64,000 nucleotides of DNA from Methanomassiliicoccales archaeon (lineage in GTDB: Archaea > Thermoplasmatota > Thermoplasmata > Methanomassiliicoccales > UBA472): contig JAJRAK010000029.1 of the NCBI GenBank assembly GCA_028682895.1, positions 7,156-71,155 on the forward strand. The letters run 5' to 3'. Both the position numbers and the translations under genes were made by a program. Below the pieces are notes generated by a model. It did no database searches. It saw only the letters and a list, made by a program, of their open reading frames with translations, and was not told the origin of the DNA. This document shows positions 30,219 through 48,221 of this stretch, one piece after another. Position 1 is the stretch's first letter; each line of letters opens with the position of its first letter.

Positions 30219-31295
30219 ATGGAGATGAAGACCAGACTTTTACGCCGGCATATAAATAAGAAGGTAGGTCTGCCTCCGGGCTCGCTCGTATATGTTGGCG
30301 ACGGAGGGCCGTCCCCGACGACGGTGTCCGTCATCGATTACACGGAGACAGAGGTCATCGAGAAGACCGGCATAACACTGGAAGAGTGCATGCCCCTCAG
30401 GGACAGCCCCAGCGTGACCTGGCTGAACTTCTCTGGACTGGCGAACGTGGATGAGATACGCAAGCTCGGCGAGGCCTTCGGACTGCACCCACTGGTCATG
30501 GAGGACATCCTGCATGTGGGGCAGCGCCCCAAGCTGGAGCTGTACGACGATTATGTCTACATGGTCGTAAAGATGATAACCCGCGGGGATAACGGAAACG
30601 ATGTGACGTACGAGCAGCTGTCCATCGTGCTTGGCAAGAACTATGTGCTCTCGTTCCAGGAGCGGCCGGGTGACATCTTCAGCACCACGCGCGACCGCAT
30701 CCGCAACAACAAGGGCAAGCTGCGTAAGAGCGGCGCCGATTATCTGGTCTATTCCATGATCGACATGGTTGTGGACAACTATTTCCCGGCACTGGAGAAG
30801 CTGGGCGAGCGGGTGGAGAACATCGAGGAGCGCATCACCAACGACCCGGGCCAGGAAGTATTGGGCGAGATCTACCTCCAGAAGAGGGAGGTGCTCTTTT
30901 TACGCAAGTCCATCTGGCCGATGCGGGAGGTGGTGGCAGCGCTCATGCGCCAGGACACCGAACTTGTGAAACCGGCCACGTACACCTATCTGCGTGACGT
31001 ATACGATCATTCCATACAGGTGATGGATGTCGTGGAGACGAACACCGACATGCTGTCCGAACTTCTCGATGTATACATGTCAACGGTCAGCAACCGCATG
31101 AACGAGATCGTGAAGACGCTGACCATCATATCCACCATATTCATCCCCTTGACGTTCATAGTCGGCGTGTTCGGAATGAACTTCGAGTACATGCCGGAAC
31201 TGACCAACGAGCTCGCATATCCAGCGGTGTTGATCGGCATGACCGTCGTCTCCGGTGTGATGGTATTGTACTTCCACCGCAAGGGATGGTTGTAA
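30219..31295 (+). CDS. corA: Magnesium/cobalt transporter CorA
   Basis: C-terminal two-TM region with the signature GMNFEYMPEL (GMN motif). Confidence 0.9.
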   Translation: MEMKTRLLRRHINKKVGLPPGSLVYVGDGGPSPTTVSVIDYTETEVIEKTGITLEECMPLRDSPSVTWLNFSGLANVDEIRKLGEAFGLHPLVMEDILHVGQRPKLELYDDYVYMVVKMITRGDNGNDVTYEQLSIVLGKNYVLSFQERPGDIFSTTRDRIRNNKGKLRKSGADYLVYSMIDMVVDNYFPALEKLGERVENIEERITNDPGQEVLGEIYLQKREVLFLRKSIWPMREVVAALMRQDTELVKPATYTYLRDVYDHSIQVMDVVETNTDMLSELLDVYMSTVSNRMNEIVKTLTIISTIFIPLTFIVGVFGMNFEYMPELTNELAYPAVLIGMTVVSGVMVLYFHRKGWL

Positions 31296-31305
31296 AGGAG
31301 CGTAG

Positions 31306-32334
31306 ATGGACGCCCTGTTCCTGTTGGCGGCGGCGGGGATACTCATCTCACTCTTCTTCGCGTTCACCAACGGTTATAACGACGCTGGGGCCGACGTCGC
31401 AACGATGGTATCGTCCGGGGCGGCGTCCGTCAAGGGCGCGCTGCTCACGGCCTCCTTGGCCAACTTTGTAGGTGCTTTGATCGGCGGGACCGCGGTCGTG
31501 CTGACCCTGCAGGGAGTGCTTGCCGACGATCTGGGGGATGACAGCGCCCTGATGATCTTTTCCGCAGTGACGGCGGCCAGCGTCTGGAACCTGATCACCT
31601 GGTATTACGGCATACCATCATCTTCCACCCATGCGCTCGTCGGCGGGCTGGTCGGTGCGGGCGTGGCGTTCCTGGGGCCGTCGGGCGTGGTCTGGGGGTT
31701 CGATGAGCTGCTCGCCGGTGAGCTCACCGGCGTCACCAAGGTCCTGTTCATCCTGCTGCTCTCGGTCGTGATGGGCTTCGTCGGCGGATATCTCCTTATG
31801 AAATTGGCCCGGGTACTTCTCAGACGGGCCGATCGGGGCATCGGGACCTCACTGAAACGATTGCAGTGGTTCACCACCGGCGTTCAGACCTTGGCACATG
31901 GGGCCAACGACGCGCAGAAGCAGATGGCCCTGATCGCCCTTTTTCTCGCTACTATGGGCTCGGGAGACATCGGTGTGCCCTTCTGGGTACGATTGGTCTG
32001 CGCGGCGGCGATAGCACTGGGCACGTTGGGAGGAGGATATCGCATCATGAGGACCGTCGGCCGCAAGATATTCAAGATCAGACCGGTGCACGCCCTTGTG
32101 GCGCAGACGAACACCTCGCTCACGGTCATCGCCTCCACCCTGGCCGGTGCGCCCGTCTCCTCCACGCAGGTGGTCACGTCCAGCGTCATGGGTGTCGGTA
32201 CGGCGGAGAACCACAAGCTGGTCCATTGGCGCGTAGGCAAGGACCTGGTGGTGTCCTGGTTCATAACCTTCCCGATCACTGCGATCATCTCGGCGATACT
32301 GGTATTAGTCTTGAAGGTGCTGATAGGTGTCTGA
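31306..32334 (+). CDS. Inorganic phosphate transporter, PiT family
   Basis: GYNDAGADVATMV and HGANDAQK signature repeats. Polytopic. Confidence 0.9.
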   Translation: MDALFLLAAAGILISLFFAFTNGYNDAGADVATMVSSGAASVKGALLTASLANFVGALIGGTAVVLTLQGVLADDLGDDSALMIFSAVTAASVWNLITWYYGIPSSSTHALVGGLVGAGVAFLGPSGVVWGFDELLAGELTGVTKVLFILLLSVVMGFVGGYLLMKLARVLLRRADRGIGTSLKRLQWFTTGVQTLAHGANDAQKQMALIALFLATMGSGDIGVPFWVRLVCAAAIALGTLGGGYRIMRTVGRKIFKIRPVHALVAQTNTSLTVIASTLAGAPVSSTQVVTSSVMGVGTAENHKLVHWRVGKDLVVSWFITFPITAIISAILVLVLKVLIGV

Positions 32335-32335
32335 T

Positions 32336-32959
32336 ATGCAAGAGAAGAAGGGTCTGTTGGACGGGCTTTTCCCGCCGAGATACGATTTCAACACGGTACT
32401 GGCAGAACAGGCAGATTCGACCGCCAGGGGAGTGGAGCTGCTGCTGGCGTCACTGAAGGGAGAGACGGACAACCTGGAGCCGCTCGAGGACCTGGACCAG
32501 AGGACGGACGGATTGCGCTACGAGATGGAAAGGAACTTGGAGGCGGTGTTCTCCACCCCGTTCGACAGACAGGACATATACAGCATGTCGCGGCAGATGG
32601 ACATGATACTGAACTTCGCCCGGACCACCCTCATGGAGATGAGGGCGTTCGATGTCGAGCCGGACCGCTGCATGATCGACATGACAGAACATCTGTTGAT
32701 AGGATCGCGCGAGGTCGTCCTGGCGGTCAAGGACCTGGGCATGGAAAAGAACAGGACGGACGAGCTGATCAAGGTGATGAGGGAACAGGAGGCGCTCATG
32801 GAAGAGATCTACATCGCCGGCATGAAGGACGTCTTCCTGCTGCCCGATCACATAATCATGCTGAAGAAGAGGGAGATCTACCATCATCTGAAGGACGCCG
32901 GGCGGGCATTGAGTACCACCGCGGACATACTTCATCGGACGGCGTTCGGCATCGGTTAG
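32336..32959 (+). CDS. DUF47 (PhoU-like, TIGR00153) protein, the usual partner of PiT transporters
   Basis: Helical protein directly downstream of the PiT gene. An ATG lies 2 nt after the PiT stop; the alternative GTG at 32327 overlaps it. TAG stop. Confidence 0.75.
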   Translation: MQEKKGLLDGLFPPRYDFNTVLAEQADSTARGVELLLASLKGETDNLEPLEDLDQRTDGLRYEMERNLEAVFSTPFDRQDIYSMSRQMDMILNFARTTLMEMRAFDVEPDRCMIDMTEHLLIGSREVVLAVKDLGMEKNRTDELIKVMREQEALMEEIYIAGMKDVFLLPDHIIMLKKREIYHHLKDAGRALSTTADILHRTAFGIG

Positions 32960-33930
32960 AGGTCGATGGTACCGACGATACGAAGCTTGCCGCCTTCCAG
33001 ATAATGTACGACGACGCGCGAGCCCGTTGCATATATGATCGGCTTTTCCAGCTCCAGCGTTGCCTCGGGATGCCTTGCGTCACCGGTCACGGTCTTCACG
33101 CGACAGGGCAGGAACTGCATCCAGTGGCCCAGGTGCATGACCATCCCTTCCTTTATCGGCGCCTGCCAGTATTTGACCAGGTCGATCTTCGCCTTGACCT
33201 CGGAGGACACCTTCATGTCCAGATCGTTGGTGAGGACGAAACCGCGGTCCAGGTCCTCCGCCTCTATTCCCTTCAGCGCTAGTCCGACCCGGTCGCCCTT
33301 GTGGGCATCCTCGAAATCATCGTCGTGCTTCTGGATGGAACGGACGAGGGCGGTGCGGTCCGTAGGCAGCACCTTCAGGTTGTCATGCTTGTTGATGACG
33401 CCCTTTGCCACGTATCCGAGTATGACCGTCCCGACGCCTTTCACGTTGAAGTGGTGGTCTATCGGCACGATCCCCTTCCCTTCCCCGTGCGGCTTGACCT
33501 TCGACGCCTCGTCCAGAAGGAACTCGCGGATGGCAATCGGGTCATCGGCCATGAAGGTGTAGTTCATCATCACCGTGTCCTTGATGAGCGGCGCGATGCG
33601 GTCCGGGGTGAGATAGTTGCGTAAGATGAAGACGCCGCGCTTGACGTTGGCGCAATCGAGCATCAGTATCGTCTCGCCCAATGCGGCGTTAATCTCGTCG
33701 ACGACCACCAGGGCCATCTCGGCCAGGTTCACGCAGAAATAGAGAGAGTTTATCCTTTCCGGATACTTGGTCGGCTCCAAAATGCTGACTGTGTCATGAC
33801 CCTTCTTCATGTCATAGATGGTGATGTCGCTGACGGTGCCTTTCTTTCCCAGGTCCTTGGCGTAACCGAGGGTACCTACCGCCGCCACGTTTAGATTTCC
33901 CATGGATGGAGTCAAGCTCTGGAGGCTCAT
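32956..33930 (-). CDS. EF-Tu/SelB-like protein with degenerate G domain
   Basis: Clear EF-Tu domain-2 beta-barrel (KGVGTVILGYVAKGVINKHDNLKVLP...GDRVGLALKGIEAEDLDRGFVL). The N-terminal region lacks canonical GxxxxGK[ST], DxxG and NKxD motifs. Confidence 0.6.
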   Translation of the reverse strand: MSLQSLTPSMGNLNVAAVGTLGYAKDLGKKGTVSDITIYDMKKGHDTVSILEPTKYPERINSLYFCVNLAEMALVVVDEINAALGETILMLDCANVKRGVFILRNYLTPDRIAPLIKDTVMMNYTFMADDPIAIREFLLDEASKVKPHGEGKGIVPIDHHFNVKGVGTVILGYVAKGVINKHDNLKVLPTDRTALVRSIQKHDDDFEDAHKGDRVGLALKGIEAEDLDRGFVLTNDLDMKVSSEVKAKIDLVKYWQAPIKEGMVMHLGHWMQFLPCRVKTVTGDARHPEATLELEKPIIYATGSRVVVHYLEGGKLRIVGTIDL

Positions 33931-33986
33931 ATTCCTTTCGCCGTACCAACCGTTATCTATGGAGCTGATACTTTCTTAACAACATA

Positions 33987-35489
33987 ATGTTCGAGCACGT
34001 CGACGCGGCCAAGAGCCTGGACCAGAAGGAGTACGACCGGGTGGCGCCAGAGCTCAAGGAGAGGTTGGGCGAACTGCAGCGAAAGGCACGTGACGCCAGC
34101 ATGCCAGTGGTCGTCGTCTTCGAAGGCTGGGACACGGTCGGGATGAGCGAGATCGTGAACAAGTTCATCCTGCCCCTGGACCCGCGCGGTTTCTTAGTAC
34201 ATCCTATCTCCGCTCCGAACCAGGATGAAAGGTCCCGCCCGTTCCTATGGCGATTCTTTGTCCGCCTTCCCGCCCGAGGGCGCATCGCCGTCTTCGACCG
34301 TTCCTGGTACTTCCGTTCCTTGGCCAGGGCGACGGAGGACAAGGACGAGGGAGCTAGACTGGCATGGCATGAGATCGCTCAGTTCGAGCATATGCTGTCC
34401 CAGGACGACCATCTGATCATGAAGTTCTTCCTGCACATCGGGAAGAAGGAGCATAAGAGGCGTCTGGAGAAATACCGAGATTCCGACCTGGACCGGTGCG
34501 CCATAAGCAACATCGACCTTGATTTCTTCAAGAAGTACGACAAGATGATGCCGCTCATCGAGGAGATGATCGAGAAGACCGACCGGGAGTACGCCCCCTG
34601 GACCATCGTCGAGGCCGAGGACGGGAAGTTCGCCTCGGCCAAGATACTGAGCACGGCGGTGCGCATGATGGAGTACGGCCTTTCCAAGATGGAGGCGAAG
34701 AGCCAGCTGAGCATGGACGCCAACCCACTGATGAAGAACGGGCAGATGTTCAACTCCTCACGGGGTGGCATCGACCTGAGCAGGAAGCTCGCCCAGGACG
34801 AGTACCGTAAAGAACTAGAACAGTTGCAGGACCGTATCGGCGAGCTGCAATGCTCCCTTAATCGGGCAAAGGTGCCGACGGTCATCGTGTTCGAAGGATG
34901 GGACGCTGCCGGGAAGGGAGGGGTCGTGCAGCGCCTGACCACGGAGATGAACCCACGCGGGTACGAGGTCGTCCCCGTAGGCGTCCCGACCGCTGACGAA
35001 AAGGCGCATCACTACCTCTGGAGGTTCTACCAGAAGCTCCCTCCGGGGGGTCATATCAGGATATTCGACCGCTCCTGGTATGGACGAGTACTTGTTGAAA
35101 GGGTGGAAGGATTCTGCTGCACCGAGGAATGGAAACGGTCGTACCAGGAGATAAACGAGTTCGAGGAGATGCTGGTGGACAACGGCACCAACCTGGTCAA
35201 GATATGGCTGGAGATCGACAAGGACGAGCAGCTGAGACGATTCCAGGACAGGGAGAAGGACACGCAGAAGCAGTGGAAGATCACCGAAGAGGATTGGCGC
35301 AACCGGGAGAAGTGGGACTTCTACGGACGGGCGGTGGACGAGATGCTCTTCCGCACCAGCACTAGCAAGGCGCCGTGGACCATCGTGGAGAGCAATGACA
35401 AGTACTACTCCAGGGTGAAGACGCTGAGGACCATCGCCCAATCGATGGAATCGCATTTACCTAAAGGTAAGAAAGGTCCAAATGATTAA
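33987..35489 (+). CDS. ppk2: Two-domain polyphosphate kinase 2 (PPK2; polyphosphate:AMP/nucleotide phosphotransferase type)
   Basis: Two tandem PPK2 modules. The first has a degenerate Walker A (VVVFEGWDTVGMSE). The second is canonical (VIVFEGWDAAGKGG...FDRSWY). Confidence 0.85.
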   Translation: MFEHVDAAKSLDQKEYDRVAPELKERLGELQRKARDASMPVVVVFEGWDTVGMSEIVNKFILPLDPRGFLVHPISAPNQDERSRPFLWRFFVRLPARGRIAVFDRSWYFRSLARATEDKDEGARLAWHEIAQFEHMLSQDDHLIMKFFLHIGKKEHKRRLEKYRDSDLDRCAISNIDLDFFKKYDKMMPLIEEMIEKTDREYAPWTIVEAEDGKFASAKILSTAVRMMEYGLSKMEAKSQLSMDANPLMKNGQMFNSSRGGIDLSRKLAQDEYRKELEQLQDRIGELQCSLNRAKVPTVIVFEGWDAAGKGGVVQRLTTEMNPRGYEVVPVGVPTADEKAHHYLWRFYQKLPPGGHIRIFDRSWYGRVLVERVEGFCCTEEWKRSYQEINEFEEMLVDNGTNLVKIWLEIDKDEQLRRFQDREKDTQKQWKITEEDWRNREKWDFYGRAVDEMLFRTSTSKAPWTIVESNDKYYSRVKTLRTIAQSMESHLPKGKKGPND

Positions 35490-35530: not shown

Positions 35531-36955
35531 ATGGTAACTTTCCAAGATTTCGGTCTCAGAGATGAGATACAGAAGGCCATCGACAAAATGGGTTTCGTCG
35601 AGCCTACCCCGGTGCAAGAGCGCACCATTCCAATCACCATGAAGGGCAAGGACATGATAGCCCAGGCCCAGACCGGCACGGGCAAGACCGCTGCCTTCGG
35701 TATCCCGATACTCGAGGCGTTGACCAAGGGGGTCAAGCCTTTCTCATTGATATTGGTCCCCACCAGGGAACTGGGCGCGCAGGTGTGCGACGAGATAAAG
35801 AAGCTCTCCTACTTCATGGACGACGTACGAGTGCTCTCCGTGTACGGCGGTAAGTCAATCGATGACCAGATAGACGCGTTCCGCAAGGGAGTGGACATTG
35901 TGGTCGGTACTCCTGGACGTGTCATAGACCATCTGCACAGGGGAACGTTGAGCTTGAACGAGATAGAGGTGCTGGTGCTGGACGAGGCGGACCGCATGCT
36001 GGACATGGGGTTCATCGAGGATATCGAGTATATCGTGTCCAAGGTCAAGACGCCGCGCCAGACCATGCTGTTCTCCGCCACCATACCGAATGGCGTTCGC
36101 GAGATAGCGGCCAAGTACATGTCCGATCCGGAAATAGTCATGATCGGCGAGGAGCAGATAGTGCTGCCGACGACAAAGCAGGTCTATTTCAACATCGAGA
36201 GGAAGAACAAGATCTGGGCGCTGTGCCGCGTCCTTGATGCTTACAGACCGAAGGCCATCGTCTTCGTGCAGACGAAGGTCATGGTCGACATCCTGGCCAA
36301 GCGATTGTTATCGTACGGATATCCGGTCGGTTCCCTTCACGGGGACCTTACCCAGTCACGTCGGGAGAAGGTGCTCAACGACTTCCGCAGCGACAAGACC
36401 CATGTGCTCATAGCCACGGACGTCGCCGCCCGCGGATTGGACATCGAAGGTGTGACGCATGTCATAAACTACGACATACCTGAGGACCCAGAGATCTACG
36501 TCCACCGCATCGGACGTACGGGAAGGGCCGGCAAGGAAGGTGTGGCGATAACTTTCATCACTTCCAAGGAAGTGCATCTGCTGAGAAAGATCAACGAGTT
36601 CGGCGTGACCGAGATCGAGCATCTGGAAGTGCCGGAGAGCGGCCGCAAGGACGTCATCCGGAAGGTCATGGACTTCGAGGACCAGGCGGACCTGTACGGC
36701 ATGGTCCTGTTCCAGATCAGCGCCGAGGGAACGCCAGTGGAGCGCGGAGCGCTTTTGGACATGCTCAACCGCAAGCTGCGCGTGCCTGAGATCGCCGTGG
36801 GCAACATCAACCTGTTCGACGACCGGACGGAGTTCGAGATACACAAGGACTCGGCCAAGAAGGTGCTCATGGAGCTGAAGTCGCTGCGCGTGGCGGACAA
36901 GAAGCTGAAGGTGGAGATCGTCCACCGCGAGCTGCCGCCAATATCGATGCAGTGA
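35531..36955 (+). CDS. DEAD-box ATP-dependent RNA helicase with DbpA-type C-terminal RNA-binding domain
   Basis: Q motif F..LGL....A......PTPVQ, AQAQTGTGKT, PTRELA-like, DEAD, SAT and HRIGRTGRAG. Confidence 0.92.
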   Translation: MVTFQDFGLRDEIQKAIDKMGFVEPTPVQERTIPITMKGKDMIAQAQTGTGKTAAFGIPILEALTKGVKPFSLILVPTRELGAQVCDEIKKLSYFMDDVRVLSVYGGKSIDDQIDAFRKGVDIVVGTPGRVIDHLHRGTLSLNEIEVLVLDEADRMLDMGFIEDIEYIVSKVKTPRQTMLFSATIPNGVREIAAKYMSDPEIVMIGEEQIVLPTTKQVYFNIERKNKIWALCRVLDAYRPKAIVFVQTKVMVDILAKRLLSYGYPVGSLHGDLTQSRREKVLNDFRSDKTHVLIATDVAARGLDIEGVTHVINYDIPEDPEIYVHRIGRTGRAGKEGVAITFITSKEVHLLRKINEFGVTEIEHLEVPESGRKDVIRKVMDFEDQADLYGMVLFQISAEGTPVERGALLDMLNRKLRVPEIAVGNINLFDDRTEFEIHKDSAKKVLMELKSLRVADKKLKVEIVHRELPPISMQ

Positions 36956-37002
36956 ACGCCTAGACAACCAACAGTATCTATCTATTGCACTTGCACCGGA
37001 GT

Positions 37003-37262
37003 CTCGTTCTTCGTGATGACCGCTATGACGTGAGGCGGCCGTACTGTCCTGATCGGTGTTGTAGAAGGAAGCACCTGCCAACGGTGTACTGTCGATGTTC
37101 TGCAAATCGTTTACTGTATCGTTCAGTTGGCACTGAAGGGCAATCGCGCGCGGAAGGATGATAGTGTTCATGCCCTGCTGGAAACGCGCGTTGGTGGAAC
37201 TGATGTTCAAATTGATCAAAACACTTGGTCATCAGTGTAGTAACAGTATACGCCCGTTGATA
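37003..37262 (-). pseudogene. Decayed ~87-codon fragment homologous to codons of the 2370-aa gene (copy of 39208-39478)
   Basis: Alignable by eye to 39208-39478: STGVYCYYTDDQVF*-INLNISSTNARFQQGMNTIILPRAIALQCQLND... versus STGVYRYSADDQVFLINLNVSSANARFQQGMNTIILPRAIALQCQLND.... It carries an in-frame TGA (37216-37218) with a 1-nt indel, and a 5-nt deletion near 37033-37043. Confidence 0.8.
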
Positions 37263-37309
37263 ATGAATAACGACTGTGGACGTGATTGTGGGGACGGGCC
37301 ATATTTGCT

Positions 37310-38850
37310 CACGGTTTAAGACATCTTAAAAGGTCATGAATTATCTTAAAGCATGTGAAGATGGACAATAATGTAATTTATATATATATTAAATATAAAT
37401 TTTAATCTTTATATTCAAACATATTCATCTCCATGATATCTTCGAATGAATAATCCTTTCTTTCATTTTTATATGAACAGATAGTTCCATAACCCATATC
37501 ACAATTATATTTTTTTATTGGGATTGCCCACTGATTTCTTAATACATTGATAATATCGTTAATTGTACTCGGCGGTTTAAAACCGAGATTAATTCTTTTT
37601 CCATTCTTTAATATTAATACTATGGAAACAGGGGAATTCTTCCATAATACCCCCCGATGCTCATCGATAAGTTGGGTCATGTTACCACGAATAATCGATG
37701 CATTACGGATAGTATCCCGAGGAACTTCGATAGTATTAATGTTGGAACGATATAGACGCGGTGATGGAACGATAATAGAATCGGTTTTAATGATTATTGG
37801 TATACTTCCATCCAATTCTCTTTTTAAAATTTTTTCTGTTGAAAATAAAAAAATACCCAAGAACGTCAATATTAATAAAGTAAAAAAATATATAAATTCA
37901 AATGTGATAAAAGCTATCAGTGAAGCATATAATGCAACAATTATTGTTAATAATATTACAAGTCGAAGGATCCATTGAATCCTAATAATTTTATTTTTAT
38001 CAAGTTCGATTCCGCGAAAATCATATTTCGGCAATCTTTCCCTGAACAGTATTTGTTTTTCCAATACAATCACCAATCATTCATGATAATGGTTAGATAT
38101 TGTCGAAGCTAATGCCGTTGCATCGATTGCTATACTAGCGATAGGGCTTATTTTTACAATTGCTTTCCATATTGGATTTGAAAATGGATTAATGGGGAAT
38201 GCCAATGATACAAGATAACTTGCGATTGATATTACTAATCCAGTAACACCAAATAGGATACTAGTTGAATAATCGTTTATTTGTGTTGCGGCTATAGCAA
38301 GAAAAACACTAAATAAACTTACAGCTAGAATAAAAATATCATTAGCAACCTTTTTATGAGCAACATATGCGATAATAGCTCCTATCAGTGATGTAGCCAC
38401 CGCAAGAAAACCCTCGAATAATATTGATTGATCATCCCCCAACATTTCCCAAACCCAATCCCCCCAATTATCGATAGCAAAATAGAAAAGCATTACTAAT
38501 GGAGTTGCTGCTAAGAAATTTATTAACTCTCCGAAGAGAATATCCCCGATAAAACTACACGGTATTGAACGATATAATATTGTAGTAATTAATAATATTA
38601 TTAGACTCGATATAGCTAAACAATTAATCATATCGGAATTAAAAATAGAAATGCAAATATCATCTACATCTGCTTGACTGACTTCATTATTATTATAAGC
38701 CTGTGAAGCCTTTGATACCTTTGAATTGAGGCTGTTAAAACAAGGTTCGTTACTATCGGTTATTGTTTGTTTTTCCTGATTTAGCTGCTCGCCTAATAAA
38801 TAGCGAATGAAATCAACAATCCAATCCACGAAAGCGCAGAACCCATCTAC
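37310..38850. other. Strongly AT-rich compositional island (borders approximate)
   Basis: For example, 37801-37860 has 13 G+C of 60, whereas 39601-39660 in the same gene has 39 of 60. The island covers the 224-aa gene and the last ~260 codons of the 2370-aa gene. Confidence 0.8.
37402..38076 (-). CDS. Small membrane protein (2 TM + PH-like soluble domain), 224 aa, AT-rich, non-ATG start
   Basis: The ORF begins TTG GTG immediately after the TGA of the giant gene (38077-38079), and there is no ATG for >100 codons. It has two adjacent hydrophobic helices, then a beta-rich domain. Confidence 0.6.
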   Translation of the reverse strand: MVIVLEKQILFRERLPKYDFRGIELDKNKIIRIQWILRLVILLTIIVALYASLIAFITFEFIYFFTLLILTFLGIFLFSTEKILKRELDGSIPIIIKTDSIIVPSPRLYRSNINTIEVPRDTIRNASIIRGNMTQLIDEHRGVLWKNSPVSIVLILKNGKRINLGFKPPSTINDIINVLRNQWAIPIKKYNCDMGYGTICSYKNERKDYSFEDIMEMNMFEYKD

Positions 38851-41800
38851 GATGAAATCCACAGCATCTTCTATTACAGAGATTGCAGTAGAGATGAGGT
38901 TCGCTACGATCTCCAGCCCTATGATCATTAAGTGAGCCCATAGCAGCAACACCCCGCCGGTCGCGATCCATATCAGGAAGTCGAACACCAGGTTCGCTAT
39001 GTCGCTTATCACGTCCAAGGGATCGAAGAAGTTAGGCGCCCCTCCGAGCCCGGAGTTAGTGATGGACGTCGGTATCGACGACAGTATGTCTTTCGGAAGG
39101 TGCATGAGGTAGACGGACGTGGACGATATCGTCACGTTGTTGCCTATGCGTGCGCCGGTCGAGTTGTGCGTCAGCATCTCTAGGATCGCCTCTGCCTGCT
39201 GATAGGTCACGTTCTTCGTTATGACCGCTATGACGTGCGATGATGCCGACGCACTGTCCTGGTCGGTGCTGTAGAAGGAAGCGTCGGCAAGCGGCGTGCT
39301 GCCGATGCTCTGCAGGTCGTACAGCGTATCGTTCAATTGACATTGTAAGGCGATGGCACGGGGCAGGATTATCGTGTTCATCCCTTGCTGGAAACGTGCG
39401 TTGGCGGAACTGACGTTCAAATTGATGAGGAAGACCTGGTCGTCTGCGCTGTAACGGTACACGCCTGTGGAGACCTGATCGAGACCGTAATCCCCGTCGT
39501 CTCCCGTCCCGTTCACGACGATCACCTTCGCCTTCTCGGCGACAGTGCGCTGCAGCCCGACCTTCATGTACCCGTCCGCGTCGTTGTCGAGCCAGCCGCA
39601 GGTGCCCTGGAACGACGTCTGGTACTGCGTCGTCGACAGCGTCCAGGTCACCGTGTGCTCCAGGTTGCTCGTCGAAGATACGTCCAGCTTGATGTCGTCG
39701 CCCGGCACCGTCCCGGCGTTGTCGGCGACGGCGTAGAATATGACGGAGACGGACGTCACCGTCTCCGCGATGTCGATATCGTACGTCCATCCCGGATAGT
39801 ACAGCGTGTCGGTGTGCGCGGCCATGCGCTTGGTCGAAAGCATCTCGCCGTTGTACTTTATGACGAAGAAGATGGTACGGTCGTCGTCGTAATTGATGTC
39901 CTCCCTCGTCCGGTACTCCAGTATGGAAACGCGCAGCACCGCGTCGCCCATGTACCTGTCGACGTTGTCGTTGTAGCCGTCGTCGTCCGTGTCGGCGCGC
40001 GTCGGGTCAGTAACGTAACTGCATAATGTAATCCCAGATACCTCGTTCCCGTCGGAAACGCCATCGCTGTCGCTGTCCGAGGAGCGCGGGTTGGTGTACC
40101 AGCCGTCGATCCCGAAGTTCACCTCCTCGCCGTCCGATAGGCCGTCATCATCGGAGTCTCTGTCCAATACGTTCGTCGTCCCGTTCACCTGCAACCGTAC
40201 GTACTCCACGCGGCCTTCCGTTCCTGCCGTGATATCGGTGACGTTGATCTTCCAGGTGCTGGCCGACGTCAGGTCGCTGGCGGAGTACGGTGACGACAAT
40301 GAGAAGAGGTTGACCAGCGCGTAGTAGTTCGCCCCGCTGCCGGTGCCTGAGGCCTTTATCGTCTTGGTCGTCCCGGTCGCGCCCTTGGACATCTGCACGC
40401 GCAGCTGCGTCTCCGCCCCGTGCATTATCCCGATGACGAGGCAGAACGACGATATGGTGCCGGATATGGCCGGTACCGATAATGAGATCGTCACCTTCGA
40501 AGAGCCGTCCGGTATCAAGTGCGATTCGTCCGTAGACCATGTGTACGAGTACTTCTCTGAACCGTCCGTCAGGTCGTCGTTATCGGAATCGGCGTCCGTC
40601 GGGTCGGTGAGGTACGAGCTCGTTCTTTCCACGTTGTCGTTCAGGCCGTCCGTGTCGGTGTCGGCGGAGAACGGGTCCAGGTCGTAAGTATGCGTGCCGA
40701 TGGCCGACATCGTAACGCGCAACGCCTCGTACGCGTCGCTGTAGGTGTCGCCGTCGCTGTCCTTGTATACGGTGATGGAGTCCACGGCTACCGTTGTCGT
40801 GGACGTTATCTCGAACATTATGTTGATCTGTCCCCCGGCCACCGAGTCGTATGTTATGGCGGATGTCACGAACATGTCAGTGCGCCAGGCGGTGCCGGTG
40901 GTGAACGATCCCAAAGGCGCGGTTCCGGTACTGTTGATGAACTGCTTGAGCGACGTGGTGCCGGACGTGACCTTGTACGTTATGCTTATGAGGTACTGAG
41001 CATCGCTCTCCGCCCCGTTCAGGTAGAAGTTGGCGTTGTTCCCGCTTACAGTGTTACGCCAGTAGACGCTTCCGCTGGAAGTGATAGCACCCCATTCGCC
41101 GTTGTCCAGCAGGCTTATGCCTGGCGTATGCGACGATCCTGTCGTATCTCCGGAGACGCCTACGTCCGTATAATATCGGGATGTCCAGAGAACCACGCGG
41201 GTGAGGTTCTTTATCGCGGAGGTGAGCTTGATGCGCACGGTCGATCCGGGCGTCGTTCCCTGTGCGTCCGTGTACGTCGGATTGAGCTGCACGACGGCGG
41301 ACGTGCCCCAGCTCTCCAGCGTGCCTATGCTTGCGTAGGCGGAGGTGACGTACTGCTGCACGCCGATGCCCGTGTACGAATCGAGACCTACGAACTCTAG
41401 TAAGTACGTCTGGTCGCTGCGCGGCAGGGTGATCAGTAACGTAGCAGAGACGGAACCGTTGACGACGGCGTCGTCTATGGCCCAATTGTTCTCCAGCATG
41501 ACGCCGGGGTAGTTCTGAGAGGTGCCGAAGAAGTCTGAGACGTACGCAACGGCGACGGCGTCGATGCTGTCGACGACGATGGCGTACGAGAAGCGGAGCT
41601 TGACGTTGCATGCGAAAAGGGTACCGGACGAGTCGGTAAGCCATTCGCTCTTGAGAACGAAGCTGTAGGTGTTGGCGGCGGTGCTTCCCGGAAGCGTGGT
41701 CACGGTGACCCATGAGTCACCGACGAGCATCTGGACGCCGACATCGGCCGAGGCTGTGTAGGCGATCGAGAGCTGATAGTAGGTACTCGACTGGTACGTT

Positions 41801-44800
41801 CCGTCGTATATGTTGAGAAGGAAGCAGCTGTTCTCCACCGCTTGCCTGCTGCCGCCCGAGGCCGTGCCCCAGCCAGTGCCATTCAGGATGTTCAGTCCCG
41901 GAAGGTTTTGCATGAGGTAGTTATCGCCTGCGGAACCGACGTCAACGCTGAAGCGGTCGCTGCCCCCTAATAATCTGACCGACAATGAATAGGAGCCCTG
42001 GTTCGTTCCGGCGTTGTGGTACAGCCGTACCTTCCAAACGCCGGAAGCGTTGACCGTGAGCTGAACGTTCTCGTCGACGCTGGTGCCGCCGGTGGACGAT
42101 GATGCCAGCGTTCCGGAGGGGTTGTACAGATAGAGCTGATAGTCGAATGACGTGGGAACGTCGAGAGCGACCCTTATCGTCTGGCCGTTCAGAAGAGGTA
42201 CCCCGTAATAATCGTTGACGTCCAATGCGGAATCGAGATATCCCAGATACGTGCCTGGTGTCAGGAGCGAAGCCGTGCCGATATCGTCCGCGGCATCGAC
42301 GCCCAGCCCGGCATCGCCGACGATCTTGGTGCTGAACGTAAGGTCGGTGCTCTGTTCGTTAACATTATTATCGCCGGTGTACGCGGTCGTCACCTTGTAA
42401 TGATAGGTTGCACCTCCAGTGAGATCGGTGATGTCCACCGTATGAGATGTATCGCTGGTACCAGTCGCGGTCGTGCCGTAGGATGACGTGAGGCCGTATT
42501 GAACGACCGATGTAGCTGCGTAGTTCGTGGTCCATGTGATTCGCACGGAATTGAGATCGATGAGCGCAGACACGGGCGAGCTCATTGTGAGGTCGCTGGT
42601 CGTGAACGTGCGATCGGTACTCGATTTTGTATATCCGGATGTGGAGGATTGCACCTGATAATGATATGTGGTGCTCGTGGCTAAATTGCTCAATATCCTC
42701 GAGTGATATATACCATCAGTTCCTGTGCGGGTCGTGGTGTACGATGTTGTCGTTCCGTACTTCACGACCGTGGTGGACTCATAGTTCGTGGTCCAGGTGA
42801 TTTTCACGCTATTTGGGCCATTGAGGGCGGACGATACGGAGGTTATGCTGAGGTCCTGCGTAGTGAACGTATCATCACCGCTTTCGTTGGAACTATTGGT
42901 ATCAGCTGATGCCGTGGACATGACATAGAAATGATATGTCGTGGTCGTAGACAGTCCGGTGAGATTCACCGTATGATATGTGCCTGTGTCTCCGCTCGCC
43001 GTGTGGCCATATGAAGTGGTGGTGCCGTAACAGACCGTACTGTTGGCCGCCACGTTCGTCTGCCAGTTGATACGTGCTGAAATGGGGCTCGTCAACGTGA
43101 CATCGATATTGCTGATGGTGATGATGACCTGGGCCGATGTGAATGAACAATCGGTGGTGTTCGAAGCGATCGAGAATCCGTTCATGGAGTAGGTCGAACT
43201 TACCTTGTAATGGTACACCGCGTTTGAACCGAGATCGGAGATGGTCAATGAGTGAGACGTGGTCAGGGTACTGGATTCGACGTGATTACCATAGGAGGAA
43301 GTAGTGCCGTAATCCACCCGGGAATCCGATTCCACATCAGTTGCCCATGTGATGTTGGCACATCCAGAAGCGGTTGTTATGGAGATCGAGTATATACTAA
43401 TCTGATCTGGATAGGTCATAAAGGACGTCGGTGAAGTCCATATGTTTTCCCAATATGATGTGGTCGTACTTTGTATCGCATAATATGTAGTGTTACTGCT
43501 CAGACCAGTAATCGGTGCTGTGTAATCATTAGTGCCCCAATTTTGGCTCATTGTAGCTACAGCATAATTTGGCAGGGTAGATGTGGACGTGCCCCAGAGA
43601 ACATACATTATCGCCATCGAAGAAGATGTCCATTGAGCCGTAGCAGTGCTGTTCGTGATGTCAGATATAACACAGCTGGATAGAAGACTAGAGAAGAAAC
43701 CTGATGCACCTACGGTGGAAGTGATGCCTGTTGTAGAAACATCGTCTGTTGCTGTTGCGGATACTGAAACGAGATTGCGAACTATCACGTCCTGTACATC
43801 CTCAATCCCGTCCAGATCGGCATAGGGTGTGGAGACGAAATAGGAATCCAGTTCATCCCTCAGGTCCGAGGCGTTCTCGATCGCCAATGCCTCCTCGCTG
43901 TTGTTGCGGTGGGCGATGATGTTACCGATCCGTTCGTTCAGCTCGGACATGGAATTGTTACCATGCCTGAACTTCTTATGATCGATCGAGGATATGTAAC
44001 TGGAAAGGCGCGTGATGTCCGGTACGACGTATTCGATGTCCTGACTCATGAACAGTTCCTGCGTATCGGAATGCTCTTCTGCGTAGACGCAGGAGAAGGA
44101 GCCGGATGTTATCGAGAAGATAGCCGGTGAAAAGGCATCGAGACCGGAGGTGGATATCTGCTTGGCGTCGCCTGCGTTCCCCTGCAGGTCGCACTCGGTG
44201 ACATAGACGCTGGAGCATCCGTCTGTAACGACGGTGTAAGCGATGCGCAGAGAGCTTCCGGACGCTGCCAACGAGGCCTCGGATATCGTATCGTTCAGCT
44301 CGATGACGGTATGGGAAATCCAATTGGATGCGGCGCCGAGGCAGCATGCCAGCATGATGCTGTCGTTCTCGACGTAGAGGATGCGCTCGTGACCGTTCAC
44401 CGACATGAGGTCGACGGAGCTTCCGCCGTCGGTCCTGCTTACCAGCGTAGGATCGGTGACGACCGTGCCGTTGTCCGTGATCTGCATGAAGTACAATGCG
44501 TCGGAACTATCCTCGATCATGGCCACGTTGAGCATGTCGTCGAAGAAGGCGATGTCACCGTCAGACGCCGACACCGGGAGCGCCGCCAGCAGCGTGGCAT
44601 TGACCGAACCGTCGATGAGCCTGAACGCCGCCAGCGAGTATCTCGTCGCTTCGTCGGAGATAATGTTCATGGCGATGTATACGGCATCGCCGTCTGTCGT
44701 CAGCGAGGGAGAGCTGCCGACGGACACGGCATAAGCGGTGCTCCAGTCATCGTCGTCCTCAGAGTAGAGGAAATATACGGACGGCATGGCGTCGGCCGTG

Positions 44801-45189
44801 AGCTTTCCCTCGAAAGCTATGGCCGTGCCGAAGGCGCTGCCGAGGACGATGGAGATGTTGGAGATGGAGTAGAAGGAGGTGGAGATCGTCTCATCGGAGG
44901 TGAAGGTGCTCATCGAGTCGTTGGAACATTTCCAGGAAACGCTCTGCGAGCCTATCCGTCCGTCGACCCAAGCTATATGAGCGGTACTGTCCGGACCTAC
45001 GGCCACGCAGGGCGACGATGCCATCGAATTGGATATCGTGATGCGCCTGTCATTATGTTCGATGTTCGAGATGATCTCGTCGACATCGTCGTCAGGCAGT
45101 GCTACTTCCTCCGCGCTCACGTCCGCGGTCATCACGTAGAACGCGGCTATAACCATGAGATAGGCGCAGGCTACGCTGGTCCATTTCAT
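38077..45189 (-). CDS. Giant (2370 aa) mosaic surface protein: signal peptide, BNR/propeller-like region, FN3-like repeats, PPC domain, jelly-roll modules, TSP3-type Ca-binding repeats, P-domain-like module, polytopic C-terminal membrane domain
   Basis: Uninterrupted 7.1-kb ORF. Signal-like VACAYLMVIAAFYVMTADVSA. Five to six ITW.T....S.V.YG.T.SYG......HS..L..L...T.YHY.V repeats. PPC-like DDIGTASLL.PG.Y.GYL....DVNDYY...L..GQTI.V.L. D-x-D-x-D-G-x-x-D repeats. About 6-7 C-terminal TM helices. Confidence 0.9.
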   Translation of the reverse strand: MKWTSVACAYLMVIAAFYVMTADVSAEEVALPDDDVDEIISNIEHNDRRITISNSMASSPCVAVGPDSTAHIAWVDGRIGSQSVSWKCSNDSMSTFTSDETISTSFYSISNISIVLGSAFGTAIAFEGKLTADAMPSVYFLYSEDDDDWSTAYAVSVGSSPSLTTDGDAVYIAMNIISDEATRYSLAAFRLIDGSVNATLLAALPVSASDGDIAFFDDMLNVAMIEDSSDALYFMQITDNGTVVTDPTLVSRTDGGSSVDLMSVNGHERILYVENDSIMLACCLGAASNWISHTVIELNDTISEASLAASGSSLRIAYTVVTDGCSSVYVTECDLQGNAGDAKQISTSGLDAFSPAIFSITSGSFSCVYAEEHSDTQELFMSQDIEYVVPDITRLSSYISSIDHKKFRHGNNSMSELNERIGNIIAHRNNSEEALAIENASDLRDELDSYFVSTPYADLDGIEDVQDVIVRNLVSVSATATDDVSTTGITSTVGASGFFSSLLSSCVISDITNSTATAQWTSSSMAIMYVLWGTSTSTLPNYAVATMSQNWGTNDYTAPITGLSSNTTYYAIQSTTTSYWENIWTSPTSFMTYPDQISIYSISITTASGCANITWATDVESDSRVDYGTTSSYGNHVESSTLTTSHSLTISDLGSNAVYHYKVSSTYSMNGFSIASNTTDCSFTSAQVIITISNIDVTLTSPISARINWQTNVAANSTVCYGTTTSYGHTASGDTGTYHTVNLTGLSTTTTYHFYVMSTASADTNSSNESGDDTFTTQDLSITSVSSALNGPNSVKITWTTNYESTTVVKYGTTTSYTTTRTGTDGIYHSRILSNLATSTTYHYQVQSSTSGYTKSSTDRTFTTSDLTMSSPVSALIDLNSVRITWTTNYAATSVVQYGLTSSYGTTATGTSDTSHTVDITDLTGGATYHYKVTTAYTGDNNVNEQSTDLTFSTKIVGDAGLGVDAADDIGTASLLTPGTYLGYLDSALDVNDYYGVPLLNGQTIRVALDVPTSFDYQLYLYNPSGTLASSSTGGTSVDENVQLTVNASGVWKVRLYHNAGTNQGSYSLSVRLLGGSDRFSVDVGSAGDNYLMQNLPGLNILNGTGWGTASGGSRQAVENSCFLLNIYDGTYQSSTYYQLSIAYTASADVGVQMLVGDSWVTVTTLPGSTAANTYSFVLKSEWLTDSSGTLFACNVKLRFSYAIVVDSIDAVAVAYVSDFFGTSQNYPGVMLENNWAIDDAVVNGSVSATLLITLPRSDQTYLLEFVGLDSYTGIGVQQYVTSAYASIGTLESWGTSAVVQLNPTYTDAQGTTPGSTVRIKLTSAIKNLTRVVLWTSRYYTDVGVSGDTTGSSHTPGISLLDNGEWGAITSSGSVYWRNTVSGNNANFYLNGAESDAQYLISITYKVTSGTTSLKQFINSTGTAPLGSFTTGTAWRTDMFVTSAITYDSVAGGQINIMFEITSTTTVAVDSITVYKDSDGDTYSDAYEALRVTMSAIGTHTYDLDPFSADTDTDGLNDNVERTSSYLTDPTDADSDNDDLTDGSEKYSYTWSTDESHLIPDGSSKVTISLSVPAISGTISSFCLVIGIMHGAETQLRVQMSKGATGTTKTIKASGTGSGANYYALVNLFSLSSPYSASDLTSASTWKINVTDITAGTEGRVEYVRLQVNGTTNVLDRDSDDDGLSDGEEVNFGIDGWYTNPRSSDSDSDGVSDGNEVSGITLCSYVTDPTRADTDDDGYNDNVDRYMGDAVLRVSILEYRTREDINYDDDRTIFFVIKYNGEMLSTKRMAAHTDTLYYPGWTYDIDIAETVTSVSVIFYAVADNAGTVPGDDIKLDVSSTSNLEHTVTWTLSTTQYQTSFQGTCGWLDNDADGYMKVGLQRTVAEKAKVIVVNGTGDDGDYGLDQVSTGVYRYSADDQVFLINLNVSSANARFQQGMNTIILPRAIALQCQLNDTLYDLQSIGSTPLADASFYSTDQDSASASSHVIAVITKNVTYQQAEAILEMLTHNSTGARIGNNVTISSTSVYLMHLPKDILSSIPTSITNSGLGGAPNFFDPLDVISDIANLVFDFLIWIATGGVLLLWAHLMIIGLEIVANLISTAISVIEDAVDFIVDGFCAFVDWIVDFIRYLLGEQLNQEKQTITDSNEPCFNSLNSKVSKASQAYNNNEVSQADVDDICISIFNSDMINCLAISSLIILLITTILYRSIPCSFIGDILFGELINFLAATPLVMLFYFAIDNWGDWVWEMLGDDQSILFEGFLAVATSLIGAIIAYVAHKKVANDIFILAVSLFSVFLAIAATQINDYSTSILFGVTGLVISIASYLVSLAFPINPFSNPIWKAIVKISPIASIAIDATALASTISNHYHE
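42325..43690 (-). repeat. Tandem FN3-like (purple-acid-phosphatase-N-like) coding repeats, ~95-100 codons each
   Basis: Recurrent blocks A.I.W.T...A.S.V.YG.T.SYG....G....H.V.L.GL...T.YH[FY].V. Coordinates are approximate. Confidence 0.7.
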
Positions 45190-45319
45190 CTTTTGAGAAT
45201 TCGTCCAGCTCCCCCCTCGAACTTCCGAGAGTAAATACGTTTTTTTTTGTTATATAACGATTATCTTTGGATTCTAGAAAATAAAATGAAAAATGAATAT
45301 ATTAAATAATATAAGTTAT

Positions 45320-45362
45320 AAAAAGATAAAAAAAGAACGATCGAGTGGCCAGACAGGCCACC
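45320..45362 (-). terminator. Hairpin plus T-tract downstream of the ABC-2 operon
   Basis: Perfect 6-bp stem gtggcc/ggccac with a 5-nt loop at 45344-45360. On the minus strand it is followed by tcgatcgttctttttttatcttttt. Confidence 0.5.
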
Positions 45363-45375
45363 CGATTTTTATTGT

Positions 45376-46677
45376 TTACTTCCGCTTCTTGGCCATCCCC
45401 AGCATCATGTCGATGAGTGGGAACCCGGTCTTCTTATCCGTCCTGGACACCTTGCCCGTCAGCAGTATGTCCTTCCTGAACAGGTAGACGGCGATGAACA
45501 TGGTCACCAGGGCGAATATCAGCGAGTAGGCGATACCGGACAGCACTAGCGTGTAATCGTCGAACATCAGGGCACGCATCGCGATCATCGGATGCGAGAA
45601 CGGTATGGCGAAGAGCACGACCTGGGCGAACAACGGCAGTGTGTCGAAGTCTGTCAGCATGGTGGCGAGCATAGGTATCATGGCCAGGAACGTGATGGGC
45701 ATGGTCATGGTCTGAGCGGCCTTGTAGTTCTTGGCGAATATGCCCATTATCATGCACAGCCCCAGACCGGACACCAGCGCGGCGAAGAGCGATATGCCGA
45801 TCAGCGTGTAGTCCAGCAGGTCCAATGTCATCCCGTAAGAGGCAAGGTCGACCGTCGAGGACCCCAGCAGCCCGGAATAGTAGTAGCTCATGCCTATCAT
45901 GTAGATGACGGCCATTATGAGACCGACCACCGCGGCACCTAGCAGCTTACCGAACACGATGGACGTGCGCCGGATGGGCATGGTGAGCAGGGTCTCCAGG
46001 GTCTTGTTCTCCTTCTCCGTGCCCATGGAAGATATGACTATGCTCCCGGAATAGATGATAACCATCATCACGATGAGCGGCATGACCAGGGATTGCTGCG
46101 AAAGGACGCTGGCAATGGTGGTCGGTGAGATGCCGTCCATCTCCTTGCCCTTGAACACCGTCGTCTCCGTGTAGGATGTCGGGTCGAGGATGATGGAAGC
46201 ATTGTCGCTCATATCATAGGAGATGAGGGTGGCCGCTATGGTCGTGTCCACGTTGCTCAGCAGGGAGCTGGCCGCTGCGCTCGGAACGCTGTCCATGATG
46301 CCTGCTCCTTTCATCATCCAGTAGACAGTGATGTTCCCAGTCTGGTTGCTCAGGATATTTTCTGTGAAATCTGACGATATGATGAAAAGAGATGTGCCGT
46401 CCGTATCCTCCAGCGTATCCAAAGCTTCTTGGACGCTCGTACCGTTGTACACTATCTCCGCACCCTGGTCGAACACGGAATATGCTATCGCGCCCAAGGC
46501 ACCTTCGTCGTTCATGATGACGGCGATTTTCTGCTCCTCGCTCAGTTCGTCCTCGACCCCGCCCATCATGTCACCCAGAGAGGCGAAGATGATGGCGATG
46601 ATGATGATCGGGACGAGGGTCGAAGGAGTGAGCATCTCCTTGATCTCCTTCTTGGCAATCTTGGAAAGGTTGCTCAT
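45376..46677 (-). CDS. ABC-2 type transporter permease (NatB-like, large extracytoplasmic loop)
   Basis: N-terminal TM, ~170-aa loop, then 5-6 C-terminal TMs. Its start overlaps the ATPase gene stop by 4 nt. Confidence 0.8.
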   Translation of the reverse strand: MSNLSKIAKKEIKEMLTPSTLVPIIIIAIIFASLGDMMGGVEDELSEEQKIAVIMNDEGALGAIAYSVFDQGAEIVYNGTSVQEALDTLEDTDGTSLFIISSDFTENILSNQTGNITVYWMMKGAGIMDSVPSAAASSLLSNVDTTIAATLISYDMSDNASIILDPTSYTETTVFKGKEMDGISPTTIASVLSQQSLVMPLIVMMVIIYSGSIVISSMGTEKENKTLETLLTMPIRRTSIVFGKLLGAAVVGLIMAVIYMIGMSYYYSGLLGSSTVDLASYGMTLDLLDYTLIGISLFAALVSGLGLCMIMGIFAKNYKAAQTMTMPITFLAMIPMLATMLTDFDTLPLFAQVVLFAIPFSHPMIAMRALMFDDYTLVLSGIAYSLIFALVTMFIAVYLFRKDILLTGKVSRTDKKTGFPLIDMMLGMAKKRK

Positions 46678-48124: not shown

Positions 48125-48221
48125 TCATAGTGCGCATCGTCGGGCATCATCCATATGTTGATTTTAGGGTACCTTTTCTATAGCCTATAACGTAAGAAAA
48201 AAGAACTAGTCGGGAGGCGAT

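Follow-up and report, generated by a model that had tools for sequence, protein, structure and literature searches.

The window analysed here, a 64-kb stretch (64,000 nucleotides, nt) of contig JAJRAK010000029.1 from a Methanomassiliicoccales archaeon, carries on its minus strand the gene of a giant surface protein (38077..45189 in window coordinates, which are used throughout; 2,370 amino acids, aa) and, directly downstream, a small membrane-protein gene. The 3′ end of the former and the whole of the latter lie in an AT-rich tract. According to the open reading frame (ORF) list, the translation and Pfam, the giant protein is made of an N-terminal signal or anchor helix, four FN3-like Pur_ac_phosph_N domains, D-rich repeats of Ca-binding type, a conserved region here called the arm, and a hypervariable tip. 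The arm (38812..39549, minus strand; codons 1881-2126, 246 aa), delimited by homologue alignments and by GC content at the third codon position (GC3), contains an extracellular α/β module (…QQGMNTIILPRAIALQCQLNDTLY…HVIAVITKNVT…MLTHNSTGARIGNNVTISS…HLPxDILSxIP…), a conserved transmembrane (TM) helix and an amphipathic helix with the end motif AVDxIVDxFxAFVDW; a hydrophobicity scan detects 1-2 hydrophobic helices in it. The tip, of the type designated T5 (38080..38811, minus strand; codons 2127-2370, 244 aa), was delimited by GC content, hydrophobicity and identity comparisons. It starts with a hydrophilic linker of ~60 aa and continues, in the same scan, with 5-6 TM helices. An earlier note on this DNA had counted 6-7 TM helices in the AT-rich end; about 5-6 of them belong to the tip, and the additional 1-2 are part of the conserved arm.

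The partner gene (37402..38076, minus strand; 223-224 aa), characterized from its sequence, homologue searches and an AlphaFold2 (AF2) model, begins with TTG/GTG, with no gap to the stop codon of the tip (TGA-TTG-GTG), an arrangement that suggests translational coupling. Its product has a basic N-terminus, followed by a TM hairpin and then by a soluble domain. In the AF2 model, with a predicted local distance difference test (pLDDT) of 59, a helical hairpin is followed by seven strands and a C-terminal helix. The best fold matches in the PDB are almost all pleckstrin homology (PH) domains, including bacterial DUF1696 (3dcx, 3hsa), with E values of 5e-3 to 0.1 that fall short of the significance cut-off, and no Pfam family of bacterial PH (bPH) domains matched the partner sequence. 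The succession of TM hairpin, β-sandwich and C-terminal helix in this low-confidence model resembles that of bPH proteins of the DUF1696 and YdbS/YdbT type, and the soluble domain is possibly PH-like. Only three close homologues of the partner were found among 5.8e9 proteins, and 14 by profile. The 224-aa form, with either L or M as first residue, is not on record by exact match because the called gene starts one codon later. Downstream of the partner lies an AT-rich spacer (37257..37401, not assigned to a strand), defined by sequence and by the inverted repeats I6, I8 and I9. It includes an overlapping, (TA)n-rich palindrome directly past the partner stop (37370-37401), which could serve as a transcription stop or constitute a fragile or recombination-prone site.

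Composition and borders of the AT-rich tract

In 300-nt windows the GC content is 0.26-0.36 across positions ~37,200 to ~38,900 and 0.55-0.62 on either side. The AT-rich tract extends from ~37,260 to ~38,890, with a mean GC of 0.315 against 0.559±0.045 over the remaining 64 kb (z = −5.4), and it is the sole stretch of the window with GC below 0.40, the runners-up being intergenic. The G+C counts that had first drawn attention to it (13 in positions 37801-37860 and 39 in 39601-39660) are exact, and the sharp drop within a single reading frame was borne out by sliding GC and GC3 profiles. The drop starts within the ORF of the giant protein, where GC falls from 0.55 in the arm to 0.33 in the tip, and persists through the 224-aa ORF of the partner, in agreement with the proposal of a discrete cassette extending over the following gene. 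In the 246 codons of the arm GC3 is 0.73; it is 0.23 in the 244 codons of the tip, the last of the gene, and 0.26 in the partner, while GC at the second codon position (GC2) merely changes from 0.39 to 0.36 between arm and tip. The composition is atypical at every codon position and most strongly at the third. Since GC3 collapses and GC2 is nearly constant, the cause of the drop is codon usage and not amino acid content. The suspicion that hydrophobicity alone would not account for the shift proved justified as well, five native membrane genes of the window (ABC-2, PHO4/PiT, CorA and two DUF998 genes) having GC3 values of 0.77-0.81. The AT-rich coding end of the giant gene specifies ~270 aa and not the 330 aa previously given.

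At the composition of the tract, the chance of an open frame is ~8e-10 for 270 codons and ~8e-9 for 224 codons, which indicates that tip and partner are both real genes. The contig probably derives from a metagenome assembly, since the window's own partner protein, P0034, is encoded on a contig of 93.7 kb, and the joining of two unrelated sequences during assembly could in principle simulate such an anomaly. This explanation is scarcely credible: the frame crosses the junction and stays open for 270 codons of AT-rich DNA (p ~1e-9), and independent assemblies, at least 12 of them and one with a 1.95-Mb contig, show the same architecture and junction.

The composition switch point (38860..38920, minus strand) was located by sliding GC3 and the GC profile, GC3 changing from 0.6-0.8 to less than 0.5 at about codons 2095-2105. 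The switch (~38,890) is sharp, taking place within ~30 codons, and lies ~25 codons upstream of the junction at which the amino acid sequences become variable. Its position ahead of that junction implies that the last part of the arm travelled with the cassette, and the 38860..38920 interval is likely the left-hand crossover zone. Elsewhere in the giant ORF there is a shallower dip at 42600-43800 (GC 0.44-0.52), far weaker than that of the cassette. The lowest GC outside the tract (0.40) is found at 45050-45500, covering the start of the giant ORF (45189) and the adjacent upstream DNA, probably the promoter region of the gene.

The AT-rich tract is flanked by a direct repeat of ~260 bp, absent from the earlier note, whose two copies at 36,995-37,256 and 39,206-39,467 are 80-94% identical (D1/D2, alignment A1). 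One copy, identified by the repeat and its alignment, lies in the intact gene (39206..39467, minus strand; codons ~1908-1995). The other (36995..37256, minus strand) corresponds to arm positions ~27-115 according to the repeat, the alignment, a three-frame translation and tblastn. It is GC-rich, and two deletions of 1 nt and 5 nt cause a frameshift; tblastn gives 83% aa identity over q41-105. Translated across frames it reads …LINLNISSTNARFQQGMNTIILPRAIALQCQLNDT…HVIAVITKNETPVQVQ and ends in a stop codon ~40 bp before a convergent gene. These alignments identify 36995-37256 as a second, decayed copy of a portion of the giant gene's own 3′ region, marking recombination. The convergent gene, which bounds the locus, is native and GC-rich and encodes a DEAD-box RNA helicase (35531..36955, plus strand; Pfam DEAD/Helicase_C/DbpA).

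Arm, tip and partner in related loci

With the C-terminal 474 aa of the giant protein as query, 33 homologous proteins were found (related loci and proteins are designated here by L and P numbers, respectively). The few relatives with a source name all come from metagenome-assembled genomes (MAGs) of Methanomassiliicoccales, and the ten matches obtained among 185,579 GTDB species genomes are all labelled Methanomassiliicoccales, Methanomassiliicoccaceae or, more broadly, Methanobacteriota MAGs. In the 33 homologues the arm is 42-88% identical at the aa level. Almost every alignment ends at arm position 243-246, where the end motif described above is located, and identity beyond it drops to ~20-25%. 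The tips beyond this junction measure 237-277 aa, and identity between types is ~20-30%; at a threshold of 40% identity, at least 16 types are present among 31 tips. The types share the linker and the 5-6 TM helices and are weak homologues of one another in a colinear arrangement; no polar residue is invariant among them.

The exchange of tips is best seen between closely related genes. The window and the main gene of L005 are 81-86% identical in nt sequence up to the junction only, the homology ending 5 nt past it (WINrc 25194, numbered on the reverse-complemented window), and the window protein, P0002 and P0003 have near-identical N-termini and three different tips. Flank synteny between the window and related loci was not found, and the window locus is therefore at a different genomic place. 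P0002 (805 aa) and P0003 (825 aa; L002 10001-12478) lack residues ~166-1734, the N-terminal domain being joined to the C-terminal ~640 aa; these short forms could be deletion variants or the result of assembly collapse across repeats.

In several loci the layout is a main gene, a small gene and then one or more orphan ORFs, each orphan carrying a partial arm that starts at arm position 18-149, a different tip and its own small gene. Tandem orphans of this kind (arm fragment, tip and partner) are present in L001, L002, L003, L005, L009, L010 and L018, with intact reading frames and their own partners retained. Terminal arm remnants comparable to that of the window, ending at arm position 63-153, were found in L003, L006-L008, L010, L014 and L015. 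The T5 tip, ~12-25% identical to other types, is attached to the main gene in the window and present as an orphan in L001/L016, where the tip (P0001 in L001) is 53% and the partner 58% identical, with ~70% nt identity over 1.8 kb. The question raised earlier, whether the AT-rich end and the 224-aa protein recur as a pair, is thus answered affirmatively. A further partner homologue, P0035 (64% identical), closes an array that lies at another location and adjoins a PDT/ACT-domain gene; its contig holds just 129 aa of the upstream gene, and the comparison concerns the partner alone.

Several arrays deserve separate mention. In L002 an insertion sequence with a DDE_Tnp_1 transposase (16118-17119) comes directly after the last orphan tip, with AT-rich ORFs beyond, and the near-identical array of L005 has a 158-aa partner gene at the same position. 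L003/L004 (9989-13815) holds two orphan-type cassettes and a terminal arm remnant with no giant main gene nearby; it adjoins genes for a Rad51-like protein and family-B DNA polymerases and occurs on 13 contigs from several samples. The main genes of L012 (4235-10294) and L013 (9065-10231) stop within the arm, at arm positions ~87 and ~76, respectively; neither is followed by a tip or a partner, and their surroundings are normal in GC. An ancestrally tipless gene with Campbell-type insertion was considered from these two loci and rejected; the truncation points vary between loci (q63-153), which favours independent decay.

Every intact cassette has an ORF of 150-240 aa with two TM helices directly after the tip. 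Tip and partner vary together: in all seven cassette pairs with tip identity above 35% the partner identity also exceeds 35%, with no discordant case, and other pairs stay at a background of ~23%. The Pearson correlation between tip and partner identity is 0.94; Spearman's rho is 0.19, a low value due to most pairs sitting at background. There is in addition a shorter class of partners, of ~150-205 aa, with a motif like RPxxVxIxDDG. Treating the two classes, A and B, as a single family was not retained, the profile-profile match being weak (hhalign probability 36%, E 4e-4).

A tip might conceivably be a mere membrane anchor or assembly platform for the giant protein and the partner a helper for its insertion or assembly, their variability being neutral drift and the orphans duplication debris. 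Such a role would suit the constant location of the tip at the C-terminus after a conserved juxtamembrane module, the lack of conserved catalytic residues, the translational coupling of both genes and the truncation of the L012 and L013 main genes before the tip. It is nevertheless improbable, since neutral drift yields no sharp junction, tip switching or intact orphans: identity plunges from ~80% to ~20% exactly at one motif, near-identical main genes bear different tips, the orphans retain intact frames and their own partners, and the same cassette type is found at different positions and loci.

The drop in GC content accompanies the cassette wherever it is found. In 18 of 18 cassettes, from 11 loci, GC is 0.52-0.60 in the arm, 0.33-0.51 in the tip and 0.27-0.47 in the partner, the window cassette and its L001 homologue showing the most extreme dips. 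The family is not confined to close relatives of the window gene. A hidden Markov model (HMM) of the tip alone, searched against 1.84e9 representative proteins (clusters at 50% identity), matched 277 clusters at E ≤ 1e-3 and 125 at E ≤ 1e-10, with the tip C-terminal in all; the topology of a polytopic end on a surface protein, described as unusual in the earlier note, is the norm for at least 277 protein clusters. Proteins of 1,400-3,600 aa account for at least 19 among the 150 matches listed, and the N-terminal parts vary among the 20 proteins retrieved, with PKD repeats in P0066 and weak TIG matches in P0153 (precomputed Pfam). L017, in a genome of 42% GC, encodes a PKD-rich giant and, after it, a two-TM partner of 149 aa whose gene has a GC of 0.29; in L018, from a genome of 63% GC, the giant is accompanied by a two-TM partner of 204 aa and an orphan of 653 aa, with GC3 falling in the tip from 0.82-0.93 to 0.60-0.73. 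As both loci repeat the layout and the dip, architecture and GC depletion are general features of the family.

These comparisons bear on the origin of the low GC. The earlier note took the segment for a foreign-looking cassette. On this view an islet from a low-GC donor lineage, acquired by horizontal transfer, would have become joined by accident to a native adhesin gene at its 3′ end, and the strongly atypical composition and the scarcity of close partner homologues speak for such an origin. The cassette, with its second gene, stands; the foreign donor is very unlikely and largely refuted. No donor lineage was found: tip and partner homologues are all in the same gene family and position in Methanomassiliicoccales MAGs, with no relatives in IMG/VR and no blastn match in INPHARED phages or PLSDB plasmids. 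Low GC is a regular trait of the variable cassettes of this family, which are GC-depleted with respect to the host in genomes of 42%, 55% and 63% GC alike, and the fusion point is the family-wide junction and not a random site. As the earlier note had stated, the window lacks tRNA genes and the flanking genes include no integrase or transposase, the neighbours being housekeeping genes. The hallmarks of an integrase island are likewise missing in the form of att-like short repeats, the sole flanking repeat being the diverged 260-bp arm copy.

Alternatively, the low GC could have arisen in place and without exchange, by the universal GC-to-AT mutation bias acting on fast-evolving, weakly constrained DNA. 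GC depletion does follow variability from arm to tip to partner in every locus, in hosts of very different GC, and the lack of any donor would be expected. Erosion alone is still highly improbable in view of the sharpness of the switch and of the ~70% nt identity shared over 1.8 kb by T5 cassettes in different contexts, attached and orphan. Arm repeats and remnants point moreover to recombination, and arm and cassette are incongruent, the arm of the L009 orphan being, for instance, 90% identical to that of L011 and 58% to that of its own neighbour. A check for concerted evolution of arms within a genome gave a mixed picture. Mutation bias may contribute to the composition of a shared cassette pool.

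Some other features of the window complete the description. Within 5 kb (30219-35489) there are genes for CorA, a phosphate transporter of the PHO4 family and a PPK2 polyphosphate kinase of two domains, which may form a phosphate and Mg handling cluster. Tandem paralogues of DUF998 membrane proteins (206 and 207 aa) occupy 47504-48845. A second giant surface protein of 1,993 aa (1265-7246, minus strand), with a signal peptide, one C-terminal TM anchor, long N/S/T-rich repeats of β-helix type and repeated modules of ~100 aa, has no paralogy to the 2,370-aa protein and no AT-rich dip at the 3′ end of its gene.

Origin and possible role of the tip-partner cassette

Taking into account the family-wide junction, the orphan arrays and the strict pairing of tip and partner, we propose that the AT-rich segment is very probably the exchangeable tip and partner cassette of a polymorphic locus on a giant Methanomassiliicoccales surface protein, subject to displacement of the Rhs kind. 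The arm is the predicted homology arm for cassette exchange, and homologous recombination within it, not island integration, most likely brought the cassette to its place. In the model, a new cassette would arrive joined to an arm fragment, perhaps carried by a circle or another intermediate of recombination, undergo exchange with the resident arm and replace the attached tip. The displaced arm fragments and tips would be pushed downstream as orphans and would then decay. At the window locus, an arm-bearing T5 cassette would have recombined with the resident arm, with the crossover upstream of ~38,890, and the previous 3′ end would have been pushed downstream and deleted to the frameshifted 260-bp arm fragment. 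Diversifying selection would maintain the many tip types.

As to function, tip and partner might tentatively be regarded, by analogy with bacterial modules, as an effector and an immunity-like protein acting in the membrane, a proposal with somewhat less than an even chance. It is favoured because orphan arrays, strict pairing and translational coupling typify toxin/immunity modules. In bacteria, pairs of a hydrophobic toxin and an immunity protein located in the membrane are well documented. Both products would be co-translated and form a specific membrane complex; the giant adhesin would bring cells into contact, and the tip could damage or mark membranes that lack the matching partner. The full statement, cassette displacement together with a membrane effector and its immunity-like partner, falls a little short of an even chance.

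A number of points weigh against it. All tips belong to a single, highly diverged family in which length and architecture are constant and no polar or catalytic residue is invariant; recognition or a structural task would suit such tips at least as well as toxicity, or better. Pfam (also at E ≤ 5), NCBIfam and PADLOC gave nothing credible for tip, arm or partner and no toxin, immunity or defence family match. A sequence profile search of the PDB matched neither tip nor partner, and an AF2 model of the C-terminal 490 aa (pLDDT 62) had no Foldseek match at E ≤ 0.001. A tip of 5-6 TM helices placed after a stop-transfer helix should insert in the producer's own membrane. No delivery route is encoded nearby among the flanking housekeeping genes, and we know of none by which such a tip could be delivered to another cell. 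The window has no intact orphan, and displacement at this locus is accordingly reconstructed and not seen. The AT bias could come from a shared low-GC cassette pool or from AT-biased mutation in fast-evolving DNA. Finally, the locus type is apparently uncatalogued, and Makarova et al. 2019 (mBio 10:e00715-19) may already list the family.

The same cassette system could instead furnish a lock and key of self-identity, tip and partner signalling kinship at cell contact. Homologous tips with conserved architecture, hypervariable sequence and no catalytic signature fit this role at least as well as that of an effector. Both co-varying proteins are membrane-embedded, the possible PH-like cytoplasmic domain of the partner suits binding or signalling, and the adhesin-like giant ectodomain suits cell-cell contact. 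Silent-cassette orphan arrays, however, are typical of toxin/immunity loci, and the known bacterial identity systems need a transfer machine, of which none was seen at the locus; kin recognition is possible but on balance unlikely. With regard to the family at large, the chances are even that it constitutes an archaea-specific polymorphic system of conflict or self-recognition, present in several lineages, whose specificity is read inside the membrane.

Comparison with known systems

In the displacement proposed for Rhs C-termini, tips are exchanged through recombination with core-bearing circles, and the core fragments that go with dissociated tips stand out as GC peaks (Jackson et al. 2009, PMC2935791); the general organization of polymorphic toxin systems has been described by Zhang et al. 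2012 (PMC3482391). The loci examined here resemble Rhs loci in several respects. A large surface or secreted protein has a conserved body and, past a sharp, motif-marked junction, a variable C-terminal tip; a small gene that co-varies with the tip, putatively an immunity gene, follows directly downstream. Dissociated tips, each after a core or arm fragment of variable length, are found further downstream, the window itself holding only a decayed arm fragment. GC-rich core or arm fragments alternate with tips of lower GC, and exchange would take place by homologous recombination without integrases. The differences are also clear, as the 2,370-aa protein has no RHS/YD Pfam match and no PxxxxDPxGL core end, and its host is an archaeon; with Rhs/YD-repeat proteins as such, it has in common no more than the displacement mechanism and the GC pattern. 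Compared with polymorphic toxin systems in general, neither PAAR, VgrG, type VI secretion system (T6SS) nor other known delivery components were detected, the giant protein showing only a signal peptide and FN3-like domains. Moreover, the tips form one hypervariable polytopic family instead of unrelated toxin folds, and the archaeal partner is an integral membrane protein with a TM hairpin that belongs to no known immunity family.

Contact-dependent inhibition (CDI) combines a giant filamentous adhesin-like protein, a pre-toxin motif at the switch point and orphan cdiA-CT/cdiI modules with homology arms. Among its membrane-active toxins, the CdiA-CT of the ionophore type of E. coli EC93 pairs a hydrophobic C-terminal (CT) region with a small integral-membrane immunity protein. 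A comparable layout is seen in the family described here. The window locus differs in having no two-partner secretion, filamentous haemagglutinin (FHA) repeats or VENN motif, and in that its tip is a predicted stable domain of 5-6 TM helices anchored in the producer's membrane.

The nearest archaeal analogue is VARTIG of Thermococcales (arCOG07710), whose variable part is a hypervariable extracellular Ig domain and for which no counterpart was reported outside Thermococcales (Makarova et al. 2021, PMC8416519). Both are archaeal and lineage-restricted, and in both a large secreted multidomain protein has its C-terminal region swapped by recombination, while variable downstream genes, often encoding membrane proteins, track the subtype of the upstream gene. 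Neither has a recognizable toxin domain, and the same three functional hypotheses apply. In the window, by contrast, the variable part is a polytopic TM domain and the family has orphans with homology arms; its close relatives are in Methanomassiliicoccales, which sets it outside VARTIG.

For the reading as self-identity, the closest parallel is IdsD/IdsE of Proteus mirabilis, adjacent co-varying membrane-associated proteins in which cognate binding defines identity and the variable regions are located in or near TM segments. The Ids pair depends on a T6SS for its delivery, neither protein forms part of a giant adhesin, and orphan arrays are not known for it. Polymorphic TraA in Myxococcus offers a looser parallel of self-identity.

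To our knowledge, competition and recognition among archaea are little understood, and the polymorphic toxin systems predicted for archaea are few in number and await testing. Methanomassiliicoccales are methanogens of digesters, sediments and guts. The locus type described here is a concrete, widespread and easily recognized candidate, made of an arm, a tip of ~250 aa, a co-varying partner and orphan arrays, and its GC3 dip can be used to find further loci. It also provides an explanation without foreign islands for one class of sharp AT-rich anomalies, those at the 3′ end of giant genes in archaea. Should tip and partner be an effector/immunity or identity pair that operates within the membrane, they would represent a new mode of specificity for polymorphic systems and a handle on the strain-level ecology of Methanomassiliicoccales. 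Displacement in the manner of Rhs and polymorphic toxins is known already, and what the present locus would add to it is an archaeal version, apparently undescribed, in which a polytopic tip is matched by a membrane partner.

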